Source: Candidatus Iainarchaeum sp. (GTDB lineage: Archaea; Iainarchaeota; Iainarchaeia; Iainarchaeales; GCA-2688035). From it: a stretch of DNA of 64,000 bases. Shown here one piece after another: positions 17,554 through 44,534 of the stretch. The position numbers and the translations under genes are program-made. Positions within the stretch are counted from its first letter, which is position 1. Each line of letters opens with the position of its first letter. The notes beneath the pieces are model-generated. The model saw nothing but the letters and a program-made list of their open reading frames with translations. It had not been told where the DNA came from and made no database searches. The DNA is taken from assembly GCA_017610205.1 (NCBI GenBank), contig JAFCCL010000006.1, positions 42,475 through 106,474 of the forward strand. Reading direction: 5' to 3'.

Positions 17554-18012
17554 ATGAAGTTTAAAGGTCAAGGGACAACAGAATATCTGATAATCCTTGC
17601 AGTTATAATTGTAGTTGCATTGGTTGTTGTCGGCGTAATGGGCTGGTTTCCAGGACTTGGAACAGGCATTACAGAAAGCCAGAGCAAAGCATACTGGAAA
17701 AGCGCTTCGCCAATAGCAATAACCGACTGGAAAATCACAGGAACTGCAGCAGATGCCACATTCTCTTTACAGAATCTGACAACCGACAAAATATCGGTTA
17801 CTGAGATAACAATTGATGGCGCAGCAATTGGATTGGCAGACGTCAACATTGCAGCAGGAGACACCAACGGAAGCGTTACAGGCTCAACAGGCATTGCATG
17901 CTCAAGCGGCTCAAGCTACCAATACAATATATCAATAAGCTATGATGTTGTAGGCGGAATTTCAGGCAAGACCGAAACAGGGCAAAAGCCATTAGTTGGA
18001 AGCTGTCCATAA
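17554..18012 (+). CDS. Probable major type IV pilin
   Basis: MKFKGQGTTEYLIILAVII; own promoter, ggaggg RBS and terminator. Confidence 0.9.
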   Translation: MKFKGQGTTEYLIILAVIIVVALVVVGVMGWFPGLGTGITESQSKAYWKSASPIAITDWKITGTAADATFSLQNLTTDKISVTEITIDGAAIGLADVNIAAGDTNGSVTGSTGIACSSGSSYQYNISISYDVVGGISGKTETGQKPLVGSCP

Positions 18013-18089: not shown

Positions 18090-18386
18090 CTAAAATATTG
18101 AAAAACCCATAAAAATAAAGTAAGCATAGAAAAACACCTGCGCAAGAATTAATGCAGACGAAGTAAAAATTGTCGACTTCCTGTTTTTTGAAAACCTTTT
18201 AACAAAATTCAGCAATAGTACAATAAGAAAAAGAATTAATGGAAGTGAAAGAATAAAAATGTTCAACACCCACTTTTCAGGAATTCCCCAAACAAACCAA
18301 GTTGAAATTATCTTGTAGGCAAAATTTACCCCAGGCAACACAGCCAGAAAAGAAATTACTATAAAGGCAAGGTTTAATTTTTTCAT
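18090..18386 (-). CDS. Small three-TM membrane protein
   Basis: 98 aa, hydrophobic. Confidence 0.7.
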   Translation of the reverse strand: MKKLNLAFIVISFLAVLPGVNFAYKIISTWFVWGIPEKWVLNIFILSLPLILFLIVLLLNFVKRFSKNRKSTIFTSSALILAQVFFYAYFIFMGFSIF

Positions 18387-18425: not shown

Positions 18426-18460
18426 GCCTCAGTCCGCCCATCTTATTTGAAAGATGAAGA
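18426..18460 (-). repeat. attR-like copy of the box C/D sRNA 3' end (copy 3)
   Basis: Minus strand TCTTCATCTTTCAAATAAGATGGGCGGACTGAGGC. Confidence 0.8.
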
Positions 18461-18474
18461 TTTAATTCCATTTT

Positions 18475-18924
18475 TTAAGAGTTCTTGGATTTAACGATGT
18501 CTTTTGCTTTTTCAATGAATTTTTCCGCTTTGTCATATAACTCGCTTAGGTTTTCCTCAAACTTCACTCTTGTGACATTGTATTGAACTTCCTGTCTTAG
18601 TCCCCTCAACAAATCAAATAATGATAAGTCCTCTGAGCTGAGCATTCCTTTTTCGCTGAATTTTTCTTCCAGGTATTTCTGCAGGCAATAGTGGCTTTTC
18701 TCCTTTACTCCATGCAAATAAAGTATTGCTCTTGCTGCATGAAAAGCCGCATTGTACATTGCTATTGCAGCCATCTCTTCCTTTTTAATGTTTATTAAAT
18801 CAAAACTTTCATTCAGAAAAAATTCAGCTTGTGCAAGATCCTGCAATGCAAGCCTCTTGCTTTTAGTGGTTTTCTTGAGTAATCCTTTCTCAAAACAATC
18901 ATCAACCTCAGTCAAGTTCTTCAC
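18475..18924 (-). CDS. HEPN domain toxin
   Basis: YNAAFHAARAIL, KSH, LRQEVQY (RxxxxY). Confidence 0.9.
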   Translation of the reverse strand: MKNLTEVDDCFEKGLLKKTTKSKRLALQDLAQAEFFLNESFDLINIKKEEMAAIAMYNAAFHAARAILYLHGVKEKSHYCLQKYLEEKFSEKGMLSSEDLSLFDLLRGLRQEVQYNVTRVKFEENLSELYDKAEKFIEKAKDIVKSKNS

Positions 18925-19465
18925 CTTCTAAGACAATTGATTTAGCCCTTATTTGCTGCAACAATTCTGTTTTCTCTTTTTCCATTAAATCAACTTTGCT
19001 TTTAGTCAACGTAATTAACTGCACATCTCTTTTTAGCTGGTTACTCAGCTCTCTTTTGATTTGGCTTATTAAAAGCGAATCTGGCTTTTTTTTAAAATAA
19101 ATTGCCAAATCAATATCACTGTCACCAGTCATTTTTCCGGTCGCAGCACTGCCAAACAAGTAAACGCCTAAAGGCCGTAACTTGACCAAGTTTTTAAATG
19201 GCCTGGTTATTGTGATTTCATGCACAAGAATAGTTCTCAGTATGCTTGTCGTTAGAGGATTATTATAATTCAGACTGAAAATTTTTCGGTTCTTTTGTTT
19301 TGCCACCACAACAATTTTTTTTAGTGCAAGCTTTGTCATTATTTTGTGAACAGTACTTGGAGCAAGACCTGTTTTTTCAGCAAGCTCTCGCAGATAGTAT
19401 TTCTTATTCAAAAGAAGCTCTAATAGTCGAAATGTGCTTTCATTAAGAAAATCAATATTACCCAT
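18908..19465 (-). CDS. HTH plus minimal nucleotidyltransferase (MNT) antitoxin
   Basis: N-terminal wHTH; LFGSAATG...SDIDL. Confidence 0.9.
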   Translation of the reverse strand: MGNIDFLNESTFRLLELLLNKKYYLRELAEKTGLAPSTVHKIMTKLALKKIVVVAKQKNRKIFSLNYNNPLTTSILRTILVHEITITRPFKNLVKLRPLGVYLFGSAATGKMTGDSDIDLAIYFKKKPDSLLISQIKRELSNQLKRDVQLITLTKSKVDLMEKEKTELLQQIRAKSIVLEGEELD

Positions 19466-19523
19466 GTAATAATACCAAACGTTCATATATAAAAACGTTT
19501 CGTTCACACAGAAAAACAATAAA

Positions 19524-19558
19524 GCCTCAGTCCACCCATCTCTCTCGAAAAATGAAGA
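19524..19558 (-). repeat. attR-like copy of the box C/D sRNA 3' end (copy 2)
   Basis: Minus strand TCTTCATTTTTCGAGAGAGATGGGTGGACTGAGGC; 29/35 identical to copy 3. Confidence 0.8.
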
Positions 19559-19583
19559 AAGACTTACAAGACCTTGAAAAGCA

Positions 19584-19814
19584 TTATTTTAGAAACTTAG
19601 CCAGTTCTTCAATGTCAAGGTTAGCTTGCCTTAGAATGGATTTCATTGTACCTGTTCTAATCACTTGTTTCAAAGGAATAATAACAGTAAGCTTTCTTCC
19701 GCTTGCAAATTTCCTGAGCTTTACATGACTCCCCCTCTGCTTGACAGATTTAAAGCCAGCCTTCTCCAAAGCTTTAATTACTTCCTTTCCTGAAAGAACT
19801 GGAAACTTAGGCAC
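19584..19814 (-). CDS. hicA: HicA toxin
   Basis: LEKAGF...QRGSHVKL...GTMKSILRQA. Confidence 0.92.
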   Translation of the reverse strand: MPKFPVLSGKEVIKALEKAGFKSVKQRGSHVKLRKFASGRKLTVIIPLKQVIRTGTMKSILRQANLDIEELAKFLK

Positions 19815-20016
19815 AGGCTTTCACTTCAAAAGTAGTGACAAAAGGAGCAATATCTGAAAGCTTTATGTCCTTCTTGTCTTCCAAATAGAGTTCAACAGCC
19901 TCTTTCAAATTAGCCAGAGCATCTTCTATTGAATTGCCTTGCGAAGCAACATCAAGCTCAGGGCACAAAGCAACATACTCGCCCTCTTCTTTACTAATTA
20001 CTGCAGATAATCTCAA
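19807..20016 (-). CDS. hicB: HicB antitoxin
   Basis: YVALCPELDVASQGNSIEDALANLKEAVELY. Confidence 0.92.
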   Translation of the reverse strand: MRLSAVISKEEGEYVALCPELDVASQGNSIEDALANLKEAVELYLEDKKDIKLSDIAPFVTTFEVKACA

Positions 20017-20157
20017 AATATCACCTAGTATATTTAATGGATAAACAGTATAAAAAAAGATTTGTTTCCCACCAATTTAACTCTAAAAATGAGCTCAGGC
20101 GTGCAATATGGTAGAAAGATAATATTTAATTGTTTAAGATGCATCATTCTGTTAAAG

Positions 20158-20757
20158 ATGACTCCGAAGAAAGCAATTAGAAAAAGAGAAGCTAGAGTAA
20201 CACAAAATCTGAAAAAAACGCTTGCGAGATTAAGACCGAAGCTGAAACCTTTCTTAGCAAATCCAAAACCCATAACTGTCGAACAACTTCGAGCAGGCGA
20301 CATACTATTTTTTAGGCCGAAATCTGATTCAGCTATTATAAGAAAGTGCCTTGCATATGGACACCCGTTTTCGCACATGGCACTCTACATTGGAAATGGT
20401 AAAATGTTTAATTTGGCAAAAACCGCAAGACTGCCACTGGCCGAAACCGTGTTAGCAACTTATGGGGCACCCTTTGTTTTAAGACCGGAAATTACTAAGA
20501 GGCAAACAGAAAAAATTGCTGAAAAAGCAAAAGAGGCTGTTGGAGAAAAGCATAATAAAAAAGTAGAGAAGATGGTTCAGCTAAGCGAATTGACAAACAT
20601 CGGATTCAAAAAAGCAAGAACCAAAGGATTCAACTGCACAAATGTAATATCATTTATTTTCTCAGAAGCAGGAATGGACGTGACACCAGGGGTGCATCCT
20701 CTAAGAGCCGGACCCTCACATTTCCTCCGAAACAAAAGACTCAGAAGAATAAACTAA
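20158..20757 (+). CDS. Permuted papain-like NlpC/P60 (YiiX/YebB-like) amidase with basic N-terminal tail
   Basis: LRAGDILF, SHMALYIG (His first), FNCTNVI (Cys second). Confidence 0.75.
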   Translation: MTPKKAIRKREARVTQNLKKTLARLRPKLKPFLANPKPITVEQLRAGDILFFRPKSDSAIIRKCLAYGHPFSHMALYIGNGKMFNLAKTARLPLAETVLATYGAPFVLRPEITKRQTEKIAEKAKEAVGEKHNKKVEKMVQLSELTNIGFKKARTKGFNCTNVISFIFSEAGMDVTPGVHPLRAGPSHFLRNKRLRRIN

Positions 20758-20776
20758 CCCAATAAAAATATTCACA

Positions 20777-20839
20777 GCCTCAGTCCGCCCATCTTTCTTC
20801 ATTGCTTGCGCTCTGTGTCATCGTCAGTTCATCATCGGC
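20777..20839 (-). ncRNA. Box C/D methylation-guide sRNA
   Basis: GCCG-AUGAUGA (C)-ACUGACGAUGACA-CAGA (D')-GC GCAA GC-A-AUGAAGA (C')-AAGAUGGGCGGA-CUGA (D)-GGC; terminal stem; TATA-like ctttaaag about 25 nt upstream. Confidence 0.85.
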
Positions 20840-20947
20840 AATTAAATTGTACTGCGAATGGCTTTAAAGAATAGGTATTCTTACAATTTTAGAGGCTACC
20901 ACGCCTCTCGGTTATCTTTTAAAGAAGTTTTAAACCCATTTTTTTTA

Positions 20948-22339
20948 ATGCTAACTGTAATGAAGTTTGGTGGTAGTATTCTTTCAAGCGAAAGCCAGCT
21001 TAAGCGGGTTACCCAAGTTGTTAAAAAGCGCAGGGAACGGGAAGATGTTTTGATTGTTGTCTCTGCATTGAAAGGGGTTACCAATTCTCTTATTGGGATT
21101 GCAAACAAGGCACTTGAAGGCAGCGACTTCAAAGAAGAATTTGTAGCAGTAAAAAAACTGCATCTTGAAATGCTTTCAGGCATCAAAGCCAAGAATTATG
21201 TGAAAGAGACTGAGAAAGGGCTGCTTGAAGAGTTTTCTCTGCTTGAAAGGGCACTGCAGGGAATTTTGTGCCTTAAAGAGCTTTCTCCGAGAAGCCTTGA
21301 TCTTGTGCAGACAGCGGGAGAGAGACTATGTGTTTTGCTTCTATTCGCCTATCTTTTGGATGAAAACATTCAGGCAATTGCCTTTGACGGAAGAAAGCAG
21401 GGCATTGTAACAAACTCTGATTTTGGCAGAGCTAGGCCTTTGATGGATGAAACCAAAAAAAAGCTGGAAAAAACGAAGGGATTTGTACACAGCAATGTCC
21501 TGATTTTCCCAGGCTTTTTTGGAGTTGACAAGCAGGACAATGTTGTCAGCTTTGGCAGGGGTGGCAGTGATTTCAGCGCAGCAATTCTTGCAAACTTGTT
21601 CAGAGCAAACTCCTTGGAGTTGTGGAAGGACGTTGATGGCTTTTTAACCAGCGACCCAAAAATTGTTGAGGATGCTGTGGTTTTGTCAAATCTGAGCTAC
21701 GAGGAGGCGGAGGAACTTGGCTATTTTGGGGCAAAAATCATTTACCCGCGAACAGTGGTTCCCTTGAAAGAAAAGGGTATCAAAATCGTGATAAAAAACA
21801 TCCAGAAACCTGACAAAATTGGAACAATTGTAAGTAATGAAAGACTTGAACAGAAGATAGTGGCCAAGTCAATTGCAGTCAAGAGAAACATTGCGAGCAT
21901 AACACTAAGAAGCCCTATCTTTGTTGGTCAGGCAGGCGTTCTGGAAAAAATCTTTTATGAAATCGCCAAGGCTAACATAAGCGTTGGCCTTGTTGCAACA
22001 AGCGAAACTGGGATTTCTTTCACAATTGACGAAAAAAGCCTGCCAAGGACAAGGGAAGCCATTTCCAGAATCGGCCTGGTTCTCGAAGAAGCTAGCTTTG
22101 ACAAGGATCTTGCAATGGTGGGAGTAGTTGGAGAGGGGCTGAAGAAAAAACCTGGGGTAGCAGGATTTGTGTTTGGCTGCCTTGCAGAAAACAAGGTAAA
22201 CGTTGAAATGATCTCTCAGGGAAGCAGTGGAATAAACATTTCTTTTATAATAAAAGAAAGTGATCTGCACAAAACAGTAAAGGCACTTCACAAGAAAATA
22301 ATACAAAACCCAAAGATGAAAAATAGCCTTATTAAGTAA
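20948..22339 (+). CDS. lysC: Aspartate kinase with two ACT domains
   Basis: VMKFGGS, GRGGSDFSA, DVDG...DP, EAEELGYFGAK. Confidence 0.95.
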   Translation: MLTVMKFGGSILSSESQLKRVTQVVKKRREREDVLIVVSALKGVTNSLIGIANKALEGSDFKEEFVAVKKLHLEMLSGIKAKNYVKETEKGLLEEFSLLERALQGILCLKELSPRSLDLVQTAGERLCVLLLFAYLLDENIQAIAFDGRKQGIVTNSDFGRARPLMDETKKKLEKTKGFVHSNVLIFPGFFGVDKQDNVVSFGRGGSDFSAAILANLFRANSLELWKDVDGFLTSDPKIVEDAVVLSNLSYEEAEELGYFGAKIIYPRTVVPLKEKGIKIVIKNIQKPDKIGTIVSNERLEQKIVAKSIAVKRNIASITLRSPIFVGQAGVLEKIFYEIAKANISVGLVATSETGISFTIDEKSLPRTREAISRIGLVLEEASFDKDLAMVGVVGEGLKKKPGVAGFVFGCLAENKVNVEMISQGSSGINISFIIKESDLHKTVKALHKKIIQNPKMKNSLIK

Positions 22340-22523
22340 AGTAGGGTAAAAGTGTTTGGTTTTAGTGCCTCAAGCCAAACTTACAAAAAAAGAGTATATT
22401 ACCCTGAGCACATCAAGCTAATTATCAGATTGGCAGTGGCAAAAGAATCAGGTTGCATAGGAGTTTAAAGAATAACATATACGTATATAAAGACTTTGTA
22501 AGTATATAATTATAGGTGATTTT

Positions 22524-22766
22524 GTGGGAAACGTGACAATTACCCTGGAAAATGAGGACGAGGAAACCCTTAGGTCAATTGCCGGAAGCAAGTATAATAA
22601 TAAAAAAGGCTCTTTGGCAAAAGTAGTCGGTGAGTCTATAAGACTACTTTCCAGCAAAACCGGAAAAAACAAGGCAATGAAGAGGCAGTTCAAGTGGATG
22701 GACCAAGGATTTAACCTAGGAAAAATAAAAGTAAAGAACAGAGGAGAAATATATGACAGAAAGTAA
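22524..22766 (+). CDS. Putative antitoxin (VapB-like)
   Basis: 80 aa overlapping a PIN gene; ends RGEIYDR. Confidence 0.75.
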   Translation: MGNVTITLENEDEETLRSIAGSKYNNKKGSLAKVVGESIRLLSSKTGKNKAMKRQFKWMDQGFNLGKIKVKNRGEIYDRK

Positions 22767-23193
22767 GGAATTGAAGCTTCTTGATTCAAACATCTTGGTT
22801 TACGCTTACGACAAAAGCGAGACAAAAAAGCATCCGATAGCAAGAGAACTTGTTAAAGAAAGATGGAAAAAAGAAGATTCGGTTCTAAGCATTCAAAACC
22901 TGGCAGAATTCTATTCAGTTATCACAAGCAAAATAGAGAGACCTTTGGAGATTGACAAAGCAAAGCAAATTGTCTTAGATTACATTGACGGCTTTGAGAT
23001 ACTAGGATACAACGAAAAAACAATCTTGGAAGCAATTAATGTGCAAGCAATTTACAAAATTCCTTTCTGGGACGCATTAATAGTTGCCACAATGGAAGAA
23101 AACAGCATTGACACAATAATAACAGAAAACGAAAAAGACTTCAAAAAAGTCAAGTGGATAAAAACAATAAACCCGTTTAAAAAGGCAGAATGA
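22753..23193 (+). CDS. vapC: PIN domain toxin
   Basis: LLDSNILVYA, LAEF, FWDALIVATM, TENEKDF. Confidence 0.92.
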   Translation: MTESKELKLLDSNILVYAYDKSETKKHPIARELVKERWKKEDSVLSIQNLAEFYSVITSKIERPLEIDKAKQIVLDYIDGFEILGYNEKTILEAINVQAIYKIPFWDALIVATMEENSIDTIITENEKDFKKVKWIKTINPFKKAE

Positions 23194-23276
23194 AACAACA
23201 ACAAAAAAGTTATATTACCCTTAATACTCAAGGCTAATTGTCAGATTACCATTTTGCAATGTTTTGCCAGATTATT

Positions 23277-24857
23277 TTAAATCATTTTTTTGTCGATTTC
23301 TTTGATTGTTCCGTTGCTTACTTTTAGAATTCGTTGTGCAATTTTTTCAATGAAGTATCTGTCGTGAGAAATTGCAAGAATTGCACCGTTGTAATTCAAA
23401 AATGCGTTTTCAACAATTTCGCAGGCGTCAATATCCAGGTAGTTTGTTGGCTCGTCAAGCAAAAGCAAGTTTGGTTTTTTAATGAGAATTTTGAGAAGGT
23501 TTAGCCTGGATTTTTCACCCATTGACAGTTGAGAAATTGGCTTGGATACATCTTTATCAGTAACAAACCCAAGCATGGACAATTGCTGGCGCGTTTTAGC
23601 ACGGTCTTTAAACAAGGAGAATATTTCGTCGTACAAGGTGGCTTTGATTGTTAGGTCTTTGAGTTCCTGGTCTACATAACCAAGCTTTGCCTTTGAGTCC
23701 AAAATCACTTTGCCAGAAATTGCCGAAACGCGGCCTTCGATTGTTTTGAAAAGCGTGCTTTTGCCTATTCCGTTTTCCCCAATTAAAACAGTTCGTTGGC
23801 CAAGACCAGCATTAAAATTTATGTTGGAAATGAGCGGTTTTTCATACCCTACACACAGGTCAACCAGGTCCAAAATCACAACTGAATTAATTGGGGTTGC
23901 TTCAAAGGAGGTTTTGAATCTTGACTGGTCCAGGTCTGGTTTTTCAATAATTTTGCGCTTTTCCAAAAGTTTTTCACGATATTTTCCTTGCTTGACTTTC
24001 TGGGGGCTTTTGCCAAGGCGGGCTATTTTGTCTTTTTGAATAGCAATGTATTTTTCTTCTAATGAGTAGGCTGCTTTTTGGGCTTTAAATGTTGCTTCAC
24101 GCGTTTTTATGTATGCTGAATAATTGCCGTTGTACTTAATCCATTTTCCATTCTCTATTTTTAGAATAGTGTCGCACACACTGTCCAAAAAATACCTGTC
24201 ATGTGTGACCATAAGCACAGTTCCTTTAAAAGCGCGCAAGTGGTTTTCCAAAATACCTAAGCGTTTAAAATCAAGGTGATTGGTTGGTTCATCAAGCAAC
24301 AAAAAATCTGCGTCAGAGGATAAAATCTGGGCCAAGGCAATAATCGCGCGTTGTCCTGTAGAAAGTGAGCCAATGGATTGGTTGAGCCATGATTCTTTAA
24401 TCTCAAGAGTTTGTAAAGCGTATTTGATTTTGTTAATAGGAGGCAGGGTTTGGTGCTTTGCAATTTTTGCCTGCAATTCCACATAGAGCTCCATTAGCTT
24501 GCTTACTTTATTATTGTCTTGATGGATTTCTGGGCGTGAAAGAAGCTGCTCAATTTTGTGCAATTTTTTTTCAAACTGATTTTGATGATGAATTGTGGCG
24601 CTTTCTCCAAGTGTTTGACACACTGTTTTATTCAAGTCCAAATCAACTTGTTGGGAAAAATAAACTGCTTTGCCATTGAATTCAATCTTGCCGTTGTAAT
24701 CCACTTGGCCTAAAATTGCTTTGAGAAACGTTGTTTTTCCAACTCCGTTTCTGCCAATAAGACCTACTTTGGAACCATCTGCAAGCCCCACGCTTTCGTC
24801 AAGCAGTATTTCCTTGCTGCCAAGAGAGATTGAAAGGTTTTTAACAGAAAGAGCCAT
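23277..24857 (-). CDS. ABC-F family ATPase
   Basis: Two ABC domains (GRNGVGKT, GENGIGKS, LLLDEPTN twice), no TM. Confidence 0.93.
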   Translation of the reverse strand: MALSVKNLSISLGSKEILLDESVGLADGSKVGLIGRNGVGKTTFLKAILGQVDYNGKIEFNGKAVYFSQQVDLDLNKTVCQTLGESATIHHQNQFEKKLHKIEQLLSRPEIHQDNNKVSKLMELYVELQAKIAKHQTLPPINKIKYALQTLEIKESWLNQSIGSLSTGQRAIIALAQILSSDADFLLLDEPTNHLDFKRLGILENHLRAFKGTVLMVTHDRYFLDSVCDTILKIENGKWIKYNGNYSAYIKTREATFKAQKAAYSLEEKYIAIQKDKIARLGKSPQKVKQGKYREKLLEKRKIIEKPDLDQSRFKTSFEATPINSVVILDLVDLCVGYEKPLISNINFNAGLGQRTVLIGENGIGKSTLFKTIEGRVSAISGKVILDSKAKLGYVDQELKDLTIKATLYDEIFSLFKDRAKTRQQLSMLGFVTDKDVSKPISQLSMGEKSRLNLLKILIKKPNLLLLDEPTNYLDIDACEIVENAFLNYNGAILAISHDRYFIEKIAQRILKVSNGTIKEIDKKMI

Positions 24858-39975: not shown

Positions 39976-40701
39976 ATGGTTGATTTAAACCTGACAATAA
40001 GCCAATTTCTTGACAGCTTATACCAAGCACTTGTTGTAAACATCTGGGACGAATTTGTAGAAGTCGTTCCAGGAATTGTTGCGGCAATAATCATTGTGCT
40101 TATTGGTTGGGTACTGGCAAGAATAATCAAGCAGATTGTAATCAAAATTCTGCAGAGCACAAAGGTTGACAAATGGATTGATGAGCAAAACCTTACGGCT
40201 GCAATTGGAGGAAAAGAGGTTTCGGGATTGATTGGAAGCCTGACCAAATGGTATGTTATAGGAATCTTCCTTGCACAGGCGGTAGGATGGCTCAATCTTG
40301 ACATTTTTACAATCTACCTTGAAAGAATTTTTGTGTTCTCTAACAGCAACCCAAGCCCGATATTTTTCTCGTTGCTTGGAGGCATTGTTGTAATGGTAGC
40401 AGGATTGCTGGTTGCACGCTACTTCAGGAACCTTATTGAAGCAACAACATTCAGGGTAAAGAAAGCATTAGGATTAATTGCAGAAGGAATTGTCCTAATC
40501 TTTTCAGGAATGCTTGCTTTGACATTAGTTGTGGGACCGGAAATAGCAAATGTGCTAATACGCTTGATAGAGCTTTTCTTAACTCCGTTCATTCAAGCCT
40601 TTGCATGGGTGCTTGCAATAGTAGTAGGAATAAGCATTCTTGTAAACTCAAAAAATGAACTTAGGAAAATTTCTTTAGAGTTAAAAAAGTCAATCAAGTA
40701 A
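39976..40701 (+). CDS. TM-helix-repeat (MscS/CmpX-like) membrane protein
   Basis: PGIVAAIIIVLIGWVLA repeat pattern. Confidence 0.75.
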   Translation: MVDLNLTISQFLDSLYQALVVNIWDEFVEVVPGIVAAIIIVLIGWVLARIIKQIVIKILQSTKVDKWIDEQNLTAAIGGKEVSGLIGSLTKWYVIGIFLAQAVGWLNLDIFTIYLERIFVFSNSNPSPIFFSLLGGIVVMVAGLLVARYFRNLIEATTFRVKKALGLIAEGIVLIFSGMLALTLVVGPEIANVLIRLIELFLTPFIQAFAWVLAIVVGISILVNSKNELRKISLELKKSIK

Positions 40702-40817
40702 AAAAAGGGGCTTTTAAAAACCCCTTTCTTTTTTTATTTTTTTTAAAGCTTTAAAACCCCCAAAAAGCAGGAATTAAATAAATTATTAAACAAGTCCCCG
40801 TTTCTAATTTATTAGAA

Positions 40818-40905
40818 GTCACATCCTATTGTGCGAGTGATAACGAGCATATGGCATCGAGCGCCGTTAGGCGTGAAGATGGCATTCGCACTCGCGGGGC
40901 GTGAC
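40818..40905 (+). ncRNA. Unidentified structured RNA or tRNA leader
   Basis: Nested stems gtcac/gtgac, gcgagtg/cactcgc, catc/gatg, cgcc-gtta-ggcg with tandem GA; GC-rich. Confidence 0.6.
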
Positions 40906-40908
40906 CGC

Positions 40909-40982
40909 GGGTCCGTAGCTTAGTCTGGCAGAGCATTGGTCTTATACACCAAGGGTCAGGGGTTCAAATCCTCTCGGACCCA
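40909..40982 (+). tRNA. tRNA-Ile(UAU)
   Basis: Acceptor GGGUCCG/CGGACCC-A; anticodon arm UUGGU-CU UAU AC-ACCAA; GGUUCAAAUCC. Confidence 0.9.
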
Positions 40983-41145
40983 ATTCAATTTTTTTTGGAG
41001 AGGTAAAAAAATACCCGTGAAAAAAAGCCATTAAAGAGGCTTTTACTGGTTTTATTGCCCAAATAAGGAATTTGTTTAAAAGGATTAATTAGTTAAAAAT
41101 AATAAAAATGCGAATTTTTGTAAAGAAAGTAAAAAATGTGTTAAA

Positions 41146-44010
41146 ATGGCAAAAAAAAGGATTTTGGAACAATTTGACCTCAAAAAAGAGGAAAGCGTAA
41201 GGCGTTTTTGGAAAAAGGACCAAATTCCTGAAAAGGCAAGAAAACAAAGCCAGAAGCAAAAAGAACCCTTTTATTTTATGGACGGCCCGCCCTATGCAAC
41301 CGGGCACATTCATATGGGAACTGCCTTAAACAAGGTTTTGAAAGATGTTGCAATGCGTTCCAAAAGAATGCAGGGATTTAATGTTTTTGACAGGCCAGGA
41401 TACGACTGCCATGGGGTTCCAACAGAAAAAAAGGTTGAAGAAAAACTTGGCTTTAACAACAAACAGCAAATTGAAGAATACGGAGTTGACAAATTTACAG
41501 AGCAATGCAGGCATTTTGCCACACAATTCATTGAAGTAATGAACAAAGAATTTGACAATATTGGAGTCTGGATGGATTGGAAAAACCCATACCTTACATT
41601 AGACGATGATTACATTGAAGCAATCTGGGGGTCTTTCAAAAAAGCCGATGAAAAAGGACTTCTTTACAAAGGGCTTTACCCAGTGCACATTTGCCCACGC
41701 TGTGAAACAGTTGTTGCATTCAACGAAATTGAGTATACAAAACAAACAGATGAAAGCATTTACGTAAAATTTCCAGTAAAGGATGCAAAAGAAACATTTC
41801 TGGTAATTTGGACCACTACTCCCTGGACACTGCCTGGAAACACAGGCGTAATGGTAAACCCAAAATTCGATTACGCTTTTGTAAAACTAAGCAATGGCGA
41901 AACATGGATTGTTGCAGAAAAAAAAGTACAAAACTTAATGGATGCAATTGAAGCAGGCTATGCAATTGAAAAGATAGTAAAAGGAAAAGAACTTGAAGGA
42001 ATGCAATACAAAAATCCATTGCAGAAAAAATTAAAATTGCCAGAACTTGAAAATGCTTACAGAGTTGTTATGAGCGAAAGATATGTCAACCTTGATGAAG
42101 GAACAGGACTAGTGCACTGCGCACCAGGACATGGCAAAGAAGATTACGAGGTTGGAAACAAAGCAGGACTGCCTGCAATTTCACCGGTTAAATTAAACGG
42201 CTTGCTAAAAGAAGAAACAGGAAAATATGCAGGAAAGAAATGCAGAGTTGTTGACAAGGAAATTATTGAGGATTTGGAATATGACAAAATGCTAGTGTAC
42301 AAACACGAGCACACACATGATTACCCAGTGTGCTGGAGATGCAAAAGCCCTCTTTTAATGCTAAGCGTAAAACAATGGTTTTTGCAAATAAGAAGCATTC
42401 AGGAAAAAATGCTTTCATTAAACAAAGAAGTCAATTGGACACCGGCATGGATGAAGGACAGAATGCATAACTGGCTTGAAAGCATAAGCGACTGGCCTAT
42501 TTCAAGAGCAAGATACTGGGGAACACCACTGCCAATATGGGTTTGTGACAAGTGTGAAAGCAAAAAAGTTATTGGAAACAGAAAAGAACTCAGGCAATTA
42601 AGTGGTGTGAAAGAAATTGAAATGCACAAGCCAGGAATTGACAAAATTGAATTCGGATGCAGTTGCGGAGGAACAATGAAAAGGGTTCCGGAAATTCTAG
42701 ACGTATGGTTTGATTCAGGAGTAAGCAGCTGGGCAGCATTGGGATTTCCAGAAAAAAAGGAATTGTTTGAAAAATTCTGGCCAGCCAATTTAAACCTTGA
42801 AGGAACAGACCAGTTTAGAGGATGGTGGAACTCGCAATTGATTCTTTCAACAATTTGCTTTGACAAGGCACCATTTGAAAACATTTTAGTGCATGGAATA
42901 GTACTGGACCTTCAAAAGAAAAAAATGTCAAAAAGTGTTGGCAACATTGTACAACCAAAGGAAATAATTGAAAAATATAACAGAGACTACCTTCGCTATT
43001 ATTTAGTAAGCACAAGCAAGGGAGAAGACTTTGCATTTTCATGGGATGCGTTTAAAGACATTCACAGATTCTTCAATGTATTATGGAACAGCTACAATTA
43101 TGCCTTGCTTTACCTGGACATTGACCTTGAAAAGGCGGAAAAAATTGAATTAAAGGGACTGGAAGCAGAGGACAAATGGATAATAAGCAAGGTTGAAAGC
43201 TTGACCAAAGAAACCCTAAACGCTTACAACAATTTTACTTACTTTAAAGCAACAGCAGCAATAGAAGAATTTGTTTTAGAAGAATTAAGCAGAACCTACA
43301 TCAAACTTGTAAGAAACAGGGAAGACAAGGAAAATGTAAACAAAACCCTGTCCTATGTTCTTGGCAAAATACTAAAAATTATTGCACCAATCACCCCGCA
43401 TATTGCAGAATACATTTACCAGGGATTTAAATCAGGCAAAATGCCTGAATCAATTCACCTGATTGAAATTCCACTGCCTGATGCAAAAAAGATTGACAAA
43501 AAGCTCGAAGCAGAATTTGAAAAAACAAAACAGGTTACACAGGCAGTGCTTTCATTAAGGGAAGAAAACAAGCTAAGGAGAAGATGGCCACTGCGTTCTC
43601 TTACAATAGTATCCAAAACAGGAAAAGAATTAAGTCACGTTAAAAAAGTTCTTGAAAGCAGCTGCAATGTGCAAAAAGTTTTGCTTGACAAAAAAAAGCC
43701 AAGAAAAGGAAAATACGCAGAAAAGGAAATAGAGGGCATTAAAGCATTTCTTGAAATTGACGCAGACCAGGAACTAAAAGAAATCTGGGAACTGCAGGAA
43801 CTAAGAAGAAAAATACAGGATTTAAGAAAGCAGGCAAAGCTCATGCCAGGGCAAAAAGCAAAATTAAAAATTGCCTGCAGCAAGCCGGAATTTTTGGAAA
43901 AATTCAAAAAAGAAATTGAAACAGGAACAAACACAGAATTGGACCAGACAAAGAAAAAGCCCTCAGAAAAACTCCTTGAAAGGAAATTTGCACTACAGAT
44001 TGTGAAGTGA
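41146..44010 (+). CDS. ileS: Isoleucine--tRNA ligase
   Basis: DGPPYATG.HMGT, WTTTPWTLP, ISRARYWG, DQFRGW, KMSKS. Confidence 0.97.
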   Translation: MAKKRILEQFDLKKEESVRRFWKKDQIPEKARKQSQKQKEPFYFMDGPPYATGHIHMGTALNKVLKDVAMRSKRMQGFNVFDRPGYDCHGVPTEKKVEEKLGFNNKQQIEEYGVDKFTEQCRHFATQFIEVMNKEFDNIGVWMDWKNPYLTLDDDYIEAIWGSFKKADEKGLLYKGLYPVHICPRCETVVAFNEIEYTKQTDESIYVKFPVKDAKETFLVIWTTTPWTLPGNTGVMVNPKFDYAFVKLSNGETWIVAEKKVQNLMDAIEAGYAIEKIVKGKELEGMQYKNPLQKKLKLPELENAYRVVMSERYVNLDEGTGLVHCAPGHGKEDYEVGNKAGLPAISPVKLNGLLKEETGKYAGKKCRVVDKEIIEDLEYDKMLVYKHEHTHDYPVCWRCKSPLLMLSVKQWFLQIRSIQEKMLSLNKEVNWTPAWMKDRMHNWLESISDWPISRARYWGTPLPIWVCDKCESKKVIGNRKELRQLSGVKEIEMHKPGIDKIEFGCSCGGTMKRVPEILDVWFDSGVSSWAALGFPEKKELFEKFWPANLNLEGTDQFRGWWNSQLILSTICFDKAPFENILVHGIVLDLQKKKMSKSVGNIVQPKEIIEKYNRDYLRYYLVSTSKGEDFAFSWDAFKDIHRFFNVLWNSYNYALLYLDIDLEKAEKIELKGLEAEDKWIISKVESLTKETLNAYNNFTYFKATAAIEEFVLEELSRTYIKLVRNREDKENVNKTLSYVLGKILKIIAPITPHIAEYIYQGFKSGKMPESIHLIEIPLPDAKKIDKKLEAEFEKTKQVTQAVLSLREENKLRRRWPLRSLTIVSKTGKELSHVKKVLESSCNVQKVLLDKKKPRKGKYAEKEIEGIKAFLEIDADQELKEIWELQELRRKIQDLRKQAKLMPGQKAKLKIACSKPEFLEKFKKEIETGTNTELDQTKKKPSEKLLERKFALQIVK

Positions 44011-44014
44011 ACAA

Positions 44015-44242
44015 ATGAAACTGCCAATTATTTCTTCAGCAAAGGCAATCAAAGCACTTGAAAAGATTGGCTTTAAAGAAAATCACCAAAAAGGAAGCCA
44101 TATTGTTCTTAGAAAAACAACTTTTCCATTTGCAAGAATTGTTGTTCCAAAAAGAAAAGAATTGCCAAAAGGAACACTGCGTGCAATAATAAGGCAAGCT
44201 GGATTGAACAAAGAAGAATTTACAAAACTTCTTGGAAAATAG
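44015..44242 (+). CDS. hicA: HicA toxin
   Basis: QKGSHIVL...GTLRAIIRQAG. Confidence 0.92.
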   Translation: MKLPIISSAKAIKALEKIGFKENHQKGSHIVLRKTTFPFARIVVPKRKELPKGTLRAIIRQAGLNKEEFTKLLGK

Positions 44243-44318
44243 CTTTATTATTAATAATTTATATAACTTGTGTAAGAATAGTAATATATACAACTTTTAG
44301 CAATAAATGTGATGAAAC

Positions 44319-44534
44319 ATGGATTTTAAAGTGGCAATTTCAAAGGATGAAGATGGTATTTACATAGCCGAATGTATTGACCTTCCAGGCTGTGTTTCAG
44401 ATGGAAGCACAATGCAGGAAGCCAAAAAAAATGTCAAAGAAGCAATAGAAGCCTATTTGGAAAGCCTTGAAAAGCACGGTGAAAAAATTCCTTCAAAACA
44501 CTCCGAGATTGTAAGAATAAGCGTCTGCACATAA
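44319..44534 (+). CDS. hicB: HicB antitoxin
   Basis: DLPGCVSDGSTMQEAKKNVKEAI. Confidence 0.92.
   Translation: MDFKVAISKDEDGIYIAECIDLPGCVSDGSTMQEAKKNVKEAIEAYLESLEKHGEKIPSKHSEIVRISVCT

Follow-up and report, generated by a model that had tools for sequence, protein, structure and literature searches.

CIMEs and integrase-less satellites of integrative and conjugative elements are non-autonomous units bounded by the attachment (att) sites of an integrase encoded elsewhere, while Xer-dependent IMEX and pdif modules are small units, often carrying toxin-antitoxin (TA) genes, with inverted arms, a 6-nt spacer and no recombinase of their own. In this work, we describe units resembling both in a 64,000-nt stretch of DNA, the window, from Candidatus Iainarchaeum sp. 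(assembly GCA_017610205.1, contig JAFCCL010000006.1, positions 42,475 to 106,474 of the forward strand). There, two small cassettes lie behind the 3' end of a gene for a box C/D methylation-guide small RNA (sRNA), each closed by a copy of the last 18 nt of that gene. The system differs from CIMEs in its archaeal host, its sRNA target and its integron-like depth, with up to ten cassette-end copies, and from IMEX and pdif modules in that the insertion site is not dif and that, in relatives, a dedicated integrase clade is found at the site. We consider it likely that the 3' end of the sRNA gene is the attachment site of a clade of tyrosine integrases, and that the window units are integrase-less satellites, accumulated serially.

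The closest described systems are the elements integrated at the 3' ends of tRNA and tmRNA genes: in archaeal elements (reviewed in PMC8371274) and in the tycheposons of Prochlorococcus (bioRxiv 10.1101/2020.12.28.424599), the gene 3' end is duplicated and the gene restored, serial insertions push older units away, and integrase-less remnants come to lie between partial gene copies, as is the case here. An integrase gene by the junction, a further trait of these elements, is found here in two relatives (G113 and G125); within the window, repeats bounding the inserts and a restored gene are present, but no integrase lies inside. In contrast to tRNA and tmRNA elements, the target is a guide sRNA, the units are mostly 0.4–2.3 kb long, with one or two genes and a conserved end site of about 47 nt, and they are found repeatedly, at several sites and in several genomes. 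Integrons and CALINs, including archaeal ones (PMC9668308), are also similar: they consist of small, mostly co-oriented cassettes, rich in TA genes, each with a hairpin-forming end site, behind one fixed head site and usually with no integrase nearby. Here, however, an sRNA gene takes the place of the attI that adjoins intI, the cassette sites share 18 nt with the head, and the enzyme linked to the site, carried by a plasmid-like element, is a tyrosine integrase of the ordinary kind, with a SAM domain. Phages integrated into bacterial small RNA genes such as ffs (PMC12540744) offer a precedent for a non-tRNA small RNA gene as attB, although these are whole bacterial prophages with no cassette array. 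No report of integration into a C/D sRNA gene came up in a literature search; the words "sRNA" and "snoRNA" do not occur in a 2021 review of archaeal recombinases (PMC8371274), nor does "sRNA" in the integron paper (PMC9668308, Sci Adv 2022). A box C/D sRNA gene would join the few RNA genes that serve as integration sites.

The 18-mer GCCTCAGTCCRCCCATCT occurs in the window at 18426, 19524 and 20777 (plus strand) and nowhere else, against a chance expectation of 0.03; none of 100 shuffles contained three or more copies. Start-to-start spacings are 1098 and 1253 bp. Copy 1 (20777..20794, minus strand) is the D guide, D box and terminal stem of the sRNA gene itself, which spans 20777..20839 on the minus strand and forms the attB-like head of the array; 23–30 nt upstream of its 5' end lies a TATA-like CTTTAAAG (20862..20869, minus strand), which, on the promoter spacing that we assume, is its putative promoter. 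Cassette 1 (19571..20776, minus strand) contains an NlpC/P60-like open reading frame (ORF; 20062-20757, plus strand), a HicB-like gene (19807-20016, minus strand) and hicA (19584-19814, minus strand), and is followed by cassette-end site 2 (19524..19570, minus strand; profile E 7e-10), composed of a conserved arm and spacer and then the 18-mer, in a GGGTGG variant. Cassette 2 (18473..19523, minus strand) contains a winged helix-turn-helix (wHTH)-MNT nucleotidyltransferase gene (18908-19519, likely start ATG at 19465) and a HEPN gene (18475-18924), and is followed by cassette-end site 3 (18426..18472, minus strand; profile E 7e-14), where an arm with the inverted repeat CATCTT-N6-AAGATG precedes the 18-mer. 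A profile of the cassette-end site, run on the whole 64-kb window, matched the same three places only.

Genes were assigned by Pfam, with scores of 60.5 bits for HicA, 54.7 for HEPN and 57.3 for Polbeta/MNT; the HicB-like match is under its cut-off and the NlpC/P60 match is weak (22.6 bits, the cut-off being 23). Both the HicAB and the MNT-HEPN pair consist of adjacent small genes featuring both family domains, as TA systems do. Copies 2 and 3 have in common the arm TCTTCATYTTTC, absent from the sRNA, and positions 19551-19562, within copy 2, are the exact reverse complement of 20792-20803. All these elements, namely the intact sRNA, the two recurrences of its end, the two units with their gene content, the non-sRNA arm, the inverted repeat of copy 3 and the inverted 12-mer of copy 2, had been pointed out in a sequence-only reading of this stretch, and were found as described.

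Box C/D RNAs are recognized by a C box, RUGAUGA, close to the 5' end and a D box, CUGA, close to the 3' end, the two termini pairing in a short stem. The window gene reads, in order, stem GCC, C box ATGATGA, a 13-nt guide, D' box CAGA, C' box ATGAAGA, a 12-nt guide AAGATGGGCGGA, D box CTGA and stem GGC, and has therefore both the terminal features and the internal D'/C' pair with guides of about 12 nt that characterize archaeal members. Its best Rfam match is sR2 (26 bits, E 0.006), under the gathering score of 42; in the window and 14 loci searched with Rfam, tRNAs alone exceeded the gathering scores, and a U3 match over hicB (23.5 bits) was taken as due to chance. The family contains the same sRNA gene at 11 loci, each in a different genome: both guides are constant, paired changes are found in the terminal stem and in the D'-C' stem, for example GCGCAAGC, CCGAAAGG, GGCTAAAGCC and GCTTCGGC, and the D' box, CAGA in the window, is CTGA in most relatives.

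The metagenome-assembled genome (MAG) to which the window belongs contains no rRNA; guide targets were evaluated in the complete genome G038, from the same order, whose sRNA reads ..ATGATGA-CTGACGATGATT-CGGA..TGTGAAGA-AAGATGGGCGGA-CTGA... Its D' guide pairs with its own 16S rRNA at TCATCGTCAG, over 10 contiguous pairs, and its D guide at CCGCCCATC, over 9; on the N+5 rule and the E. coli numbering, both of which we take as given, the nucleotide targeted by the D guide would be C1402, in the decoding centre. This is a real, conserved, dual-guide box C/D sRNA directed to 16S rRNA, while its expression and its binding of L7Ae, Nop5 and fibrillarin are predictions from the sequence. As the guide is fixed by an invariant rRNA target, the 18 nt are unusually stable, and hence would make a good landing site. 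The partial copies are not sRNA paralogs, an outcome which the sequence-only reading had named as fatal to its proposal: they lack C, D' and C' boxes, and carry the non-sRNA arm instead. Separately, two or three whole copies of the sRNA, tandem or nearby and with differing terminal stems, occur in several genomes (L084 4760-4930; L085; L087; L088).

Arrays of this kind are not confined to the window. In its own genome (G000) the 15-mer GATGGRCGGACTGAG is present in six copies: the three of the window, a pair on contig C1, around a gene for a 408-aa wHTH-Fic protein, and one on C19, standing after a decayed hicBA unit. The motif was found in 14 of 23 genomes of the family and in 98 of 196 of the order; at least two copies are present in 29 of the 196, by hand count of the motif table, and arrays occur in several families of the order. 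In the largest one (G162:C54), two tandem sRNAs are followed by ten cassette-end copies within 9.7 kb; shorter ones are found in G122, G170, G052, G167 and G004, the last of which has four. A 17-mer scan of metagenomes returned 96 stretches, and 80 loci were read: 22 were kept, and the other 58, in which the motif was accompanied by no sRNA and no cassette arm, were discarded as probable chance matches. A metagenome search with the first site pattern gave no match, nor did viral contigs with the site pattern and an integrase query. Many MAG contigs end 0.1–1.5 kb after the sRNA (G100:C2, G132:C7, G113:C15 and G120:C57, among others), as expected if the region varies within populations.

The loci read at the alignment stage contained 88 motif sites, 24 of the sRNA type and 64 others. 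Only the 36 featuring a CATCTTT-like arm, with at most 2 mismatches, were aligned; the 28 left out are sites at the end of HerA-like genes, sites following an 85-nt unit described below, truncated sites and sites at contig ends. The 36 sites align almost without gaps, with a 47-nt consensus, AnTGTAAnTAAnnCTTCATCTTTCGGGTAAGATGGGCGGACTGAGGC, and the non-sRNA arm of the window copies is conserved throughout. Within them an inverted repeat, CTCATCTT-N6-AAGATGGG, formed by columns 16-23 and 30-37, pairs in 87.5% of cells, compared to 37–60% in slid controls; a shuffle control was uninformative, since the 3' arm is almost invariant. The inverted repeat is conserved, and the hairpin that it could form is putative. 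Its G-T pairs work on one strand only, it lies at a fixed distance of 11 nt from the cassette end, and homology to the sRNA starts exactly at the boundary between spacer and right arm. The 5' ends of cassettes share no conserved hairpin or motif, the 3' end alone being conserved.

A hairpin working on one strand, at a fixed distance from the 3' end, might suggest single-strand transposition by a Y1 HUH transposase of the IS200/IS605 type, inserting units 3' of the sRNA end, and the genome does contain 7 Y1_Tnp matches. None of them, however, lies in or beside the three arrays of the genome, the plain 5' ends do not fit a family in which both ends are structured, and IS200/IS605 elements are not known to produce an 18-nt duplication: of the explanations considered, this is the most improbable.

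A folded end site behind a constant head also recalls integrons, to which, as to dif-module arrays, the sequence-only reading had likened the locus. The likeness holds as a functional analogy, and not as membership of a family. Integron attC sites carry R'', L'', L' and R' boxes and a GTTRRRY core; by inspection, neither boxes nor core are present in the 36 aligned sites, and no intI gene is found at the head. It is possible, but in our opinion doubtful, that the array is an integron-like capture platform, in which the sRNA 3' end would serve as head, attC-like folded sites would derive from the inverted guide copy, and one strand would be exchanged by XerA or by a visiting integrase, replication doing the rest. 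Were this so, the sRNA gene would have been co-opted as a permanent, unmutatable landing pad.

Comparison of orthologous loci reveals a turnover of cassettes. The order of features is ABC-F gene, sRNA, array, 98-aa ORF and pilin gene. In the window, the ABC-F ATPase gene, 5' of the sRNA, lies at 23277..24857 (minus strand), with 83–84% aa identity to its counterparts in L059 (G004), L209, L064 (G003) and L066 (G002); on the distal side, the 98-aa membrane ORF (18090..18386, minus strand) and, beyond it, the class III signal-peptide pilin gene (17554-18012, plus strand) have orthologs beyond the array of G004:C32, with 79% and 91% aa identity, respectively. After the sRNA, the window features NlpC-like plus hicBA and then MNT-HEPN; G004 an 85-nt RNA-like unit, MNT-HEPN and Fic; G003 DUF211 plus VIT1; G002 GNAT-like plus hicBA; and L209 a radical SAM gene followed by DUF211 plus VIT1. 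Outside this syntenic set, G001 carries after the sRNA two ORFs of 296 and 148 aa, of unknown function, its flank orthology being unconfirmed, and L140 carries MNT-HEPN alone. The empty and filled sites which the sequence-only reading had suggested looking for in relatives are found, empty or differently filled, with breakpoints at the repeats; neither boundaries unrelated to the repeats nor a constant content, which would have spoken against it, was observed at these loci. L171, where the sRNA directly abuts flank-like sequence, looks like an empty site, on the basis of a short match (62 nt at 82%, including the 18-mer).

The MNT-HEPN cassettes of the window and of G004:C32 are 92% identical over 1042 nt, the alignment stopping at the motif, and the host flanks, 85% identical over 936 nt, resume about 14 nt before the last motif; G004 thus differs from the window by precisely the Fic cassette and one repeat, placed at the last motif. 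The same Fic cassette is found elsewhere: the copy on G000:C1 and that in the sRNA array of G004:C32 share 90.6% identity over 1432 nt, and the homology extends exactly from one motif to the next. On G000:C1 it lies at the 3' end of a gene for a HerA-like ATPase (1032 aa; L001 1970-5068), which overlaps a half copy of the sRNA, made of C' box, guide and D box. This half copy is a second attachment site; the same motif is present in the G004 ortholog, where the site is occupied by another cassette (ORFs of 111 and 89 aa), also found in G015 and on G004:C68. From its translation, the HerA-like ORF seems to contain an intein-like insert. G004 contains the 85-nt unit at two sites, with the motif as its boundary, and these two copies are 99% identical. 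A candidate third attachment site, inside a 178-aa membrane ORF of G004:C55 (L060 7650-7680), was discarded, as no motif is found at the breakpoint in the orthologous region of G000 (C16, 51700-51800); the fusion of the array into the 3' end of that ORF is an illegitimate junction or a deletion.

Exchange of cassettes between near-identical repeats could also result from homologous recombination, following DNA uptake and requiring no site-specific enzyme, and breakpoints inside the repeats are indeed what this would predict. Repeats of 18–47 nt offer, however, very short homology, and neither the conserved non-sRNA arm nor the dedicated integrases described below would be explained; we consider this very improbable.

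No tyrosine recombinase was found within the arrays by tblastn with five queries, at E 1e-3 or better, over all loci fetched up to that stage (43 loci, 445,394 nt, including the whole window): the description of the array as integrase-free holds for the window and for the 42 other loci. DNA downstream of the sRNA was fetched from 40 further genomes. In G113 and G125 an integrase gene, encoding 414 aa in G113, starts about 50 nt past the sRNA 3' end, in the same orientation; the two proteins are 62% identical and feature both Phage_integrase and SAM-like domains. In G128 a C-terminal integrase remnant, 69% identical, directly abuts an sRNA variant. Metagenome contig L168, which carries both the sRNA and the G113 integrase, overlaps, at 100% identity, 1993 nt of G112:C25 on the sRNA side and 4656 nt at the end of G112:C20, thereby bridging the two; together they make up a plasmid-like element of about 17.8 kb (G112/G113), which contains an insertion sequence and encodes a TraG/VirB4-like ATPase, an ABC transporter and a protein of the PrgI family. 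Its far junction, ...TCTTATCGTCTTTCGGAGCAGATGGGCGGACTGAGGCTGATT, matches the cassette-site profile, built without it, at E 2.8e-9, and a 24-nt block is common to both junctions. Homologs of the sRNA-linked integrase reach E 1e-40 or better in 76 of the 196 genomes, the best full-length match after the G113 and G125 proteins being 42% identical. The eight next places, in which homologs other than remnants reach at most 44% identity, include the G128 remnant, one gene by a tRNA-Ser and one about 700 nt from a tRNA-Glu; at the other five no tRNA or sRNA was found nearby.

The G128 remnant, and likewise the decayed hicBA unit with its single repeat on G000:C19, might indicate that the units are immobile wrecks of larger elements, from which the integrase was deleted, and that the array merely records old serial integrations; such remnants at tRNA genes are described in the tycheposon preprint (bioRxiv 10.1101/2020.12.28.424599). 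The presence of the same small cassettes at different sites and array positions, the intact end sites with exact boundaries and the nearly identical 85-nt units of G004 argue against decay, and make this account distinctly improbable.

The likely course of events, in our view, is the following. A tyrosine-integrase clade, carried by plasmid-like elements of the order, would use the 18-nt sRNA 3' end as attB; the site of the element would itself carry at least the last 18 nt of the sRNA, so that integration would duplicate the 3' end and leave the sRNA intact. At the distal junction, the arm of the element (TGTAAYTAA..CCTCATCTT-N6) would be fused to AAGATGGGCGGACTGAGGC. The window units would be non-autonomous derivatives or satellites, which have retained the repeat together with the arm from the element side, bring with them genes of an addictive or defence type (HicAB, MNT-HEPN) and pile up behind the sRNA in an order that we can only infer; cassettes would probably be excised and re-inserted when the cognate integrase is present, supplied in trans. 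The crossover may fall within or at the end of the 18-mer, or consist of a single strand exchange at the foot of the hairpin. This scheme draws on the repeats, the conserved site, the exchange of content between orthologous loci, the finding of one and the same cassette at different sites, with breakpoints in the motif, and the integrase elements at the same sRNA. The turnover, and the integrase genes or remnant in G113, G125 and G128, support the suggestion, made from the window alone, of an sRNA serving as attB for serial cassette capture.

Several observations weigh against this scheme. An integrase or its remnant was found at the sRNA in only 3 of 196 genomes, compared to arrays in 29. In the 92%-complete MAG itself no cognate integrase is found: its three large integrases, on C18, C3 and C24, are 32–37% identical to the sRNA-linked one, and at least two sit by tRNA genes, that on C18 adjoining a tRNA-Arg, with a 14-nt direct repeat 4.3 kb away, and that on C3 a tRNA-Ser. 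Cassette identity between genomes (90–92%) is little above that of host flanks (80–85%), and recent transfer is therefore not proven. The 36-site alignment features no two-sided changes in the hairpin, because its 3' arm is fixed by the sRNA sequence. Finally, the sequence between the arms is not common to the sRNA, so that the inverted repeat is not a classical core with homologous overlap, and the crossover is placed only by inference.

The same end site could instead be acted upon by the host XerA, moving cassettes as in IMEX elements and the pdif modules of Acinetobacter: a single strand would be exchanged at the boundary between spacer and right arm of a dif-like site, and replication would complete the process. 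A search of the genome for the motif and for a tyrosine recombinase, as the sequence-only reading had proposed, returned, along with the six motif copies and the three larger integrases, a XerA on C14 (NF040815, 275.7 bits, cut-off 220), whose 227 bits with the IntI model TIGR02249, under the cut-off of 265, are the only IntI-like score; Xer-like matches of about 160 bits occur in relatives, and no serine recombinase was found. The well paired inverted arms, the N6 spacer and the point at which sRNA homology starts would all suit such an enzyme. Archaeal dif sites are given as 11-6-11 in PMC8371274; the repeat observed here has 8-nt arms and a 6-nt spacer, and two pattern scans of the genome produced no dif site of this lineage for comparison. 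The target is moreover an sRNA with no matching left arm, and dedicated integrases are found at the same site in three genomes. Action of XerA is thus unlikely.

Cassettes recovered between sites amount to 42, ranging from 163 to 5384 bp (median about 1040 bp); the list omits units with a bounding site above E 0.01, such as the Fic unit of G000:C1. They contain 73 ORFs, 58 of which are co-oriented with the sRNA. By Pfam, Fic, HEPN and MNT nucleotidyltransferase have six members each, HicA and DUF7387 (HicB-like) three each; methyltransferases, family-2 glycosyltransferases, DUF211, VIT1, MqsA-like and GNAT account for two ORFs each, and a radical SAM protein for one. One 5.4-kb unit encodes a cation antiporter together with a P-type ATPase. 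The same site also delimits hicBA cassettes in L060, L061, L066, L075 and L002. Genome sizes and archaeal markers suggest that the organism is a DPANN-type archaeon. For these small-genome archaea, the array would represent an integron-like store of exchangeable cassettes, with TA, Fic, methyltransferase, transporter or glycosyltransferase genes, kept at a single conserved landing pad. A short conserved site and an identifiable integrase clade make the proposal directly testable, and might provide a genetic tool for organisms which have none.

The structured unit of about 85 nt consists of a hairpin of the type GTGYCATYGAGCCCAAGCGAAGATGGCAC, followed by CACYAGCCGGGCGTGACGGCT (L059 6527-6608; L060; L068; L001 6660-6740). 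It belongs to a dispersed repeat family, with at least 20 copies in G000, often just 3' of tRNA genes, and matches no Rfam family. Like the cassettes, it has the 18-mer as its boundary in G004 and G011. Either an sRNA family or a repetitive extragenic palindromic (REP)-like element may be involved.

Some further features of the same genome are worth noting. On G000:C18, positions 40153-44465 correspond to the 4.3-kb integrated element that carries the C18 integrase by tRNA-Arg(gcg); the 14-nt repeat at its boundaries copies the 3' end of the tRNA. A gene for a Y1 transposase of the IS200/IS605 type ends at positions 1-58 of the window (G000:C10 42188-42532). An aspartate kinase gene (20858-22339) adjoins the sRNA; it is absent at the orthologous locus in L059, L209, L064 and L066, and was not found in the 6 genomes of the same genus that were searched. 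Being variable among relatives, it indicates that the 5' side of the sRNA varies as well. Further along, a VapB-like/PIN (VapC) gene pair (22524-23193) lies between 45-nt imperfect direct repeats (22387-22431 and 23203-23247, 76% identical); in the close relative L209 the place is taken by a single copy of the repeat, with no vapBC, and further copies are found on G000:C12 and C17. The pair may represent a second cassette-type insertion, based on another repeat.

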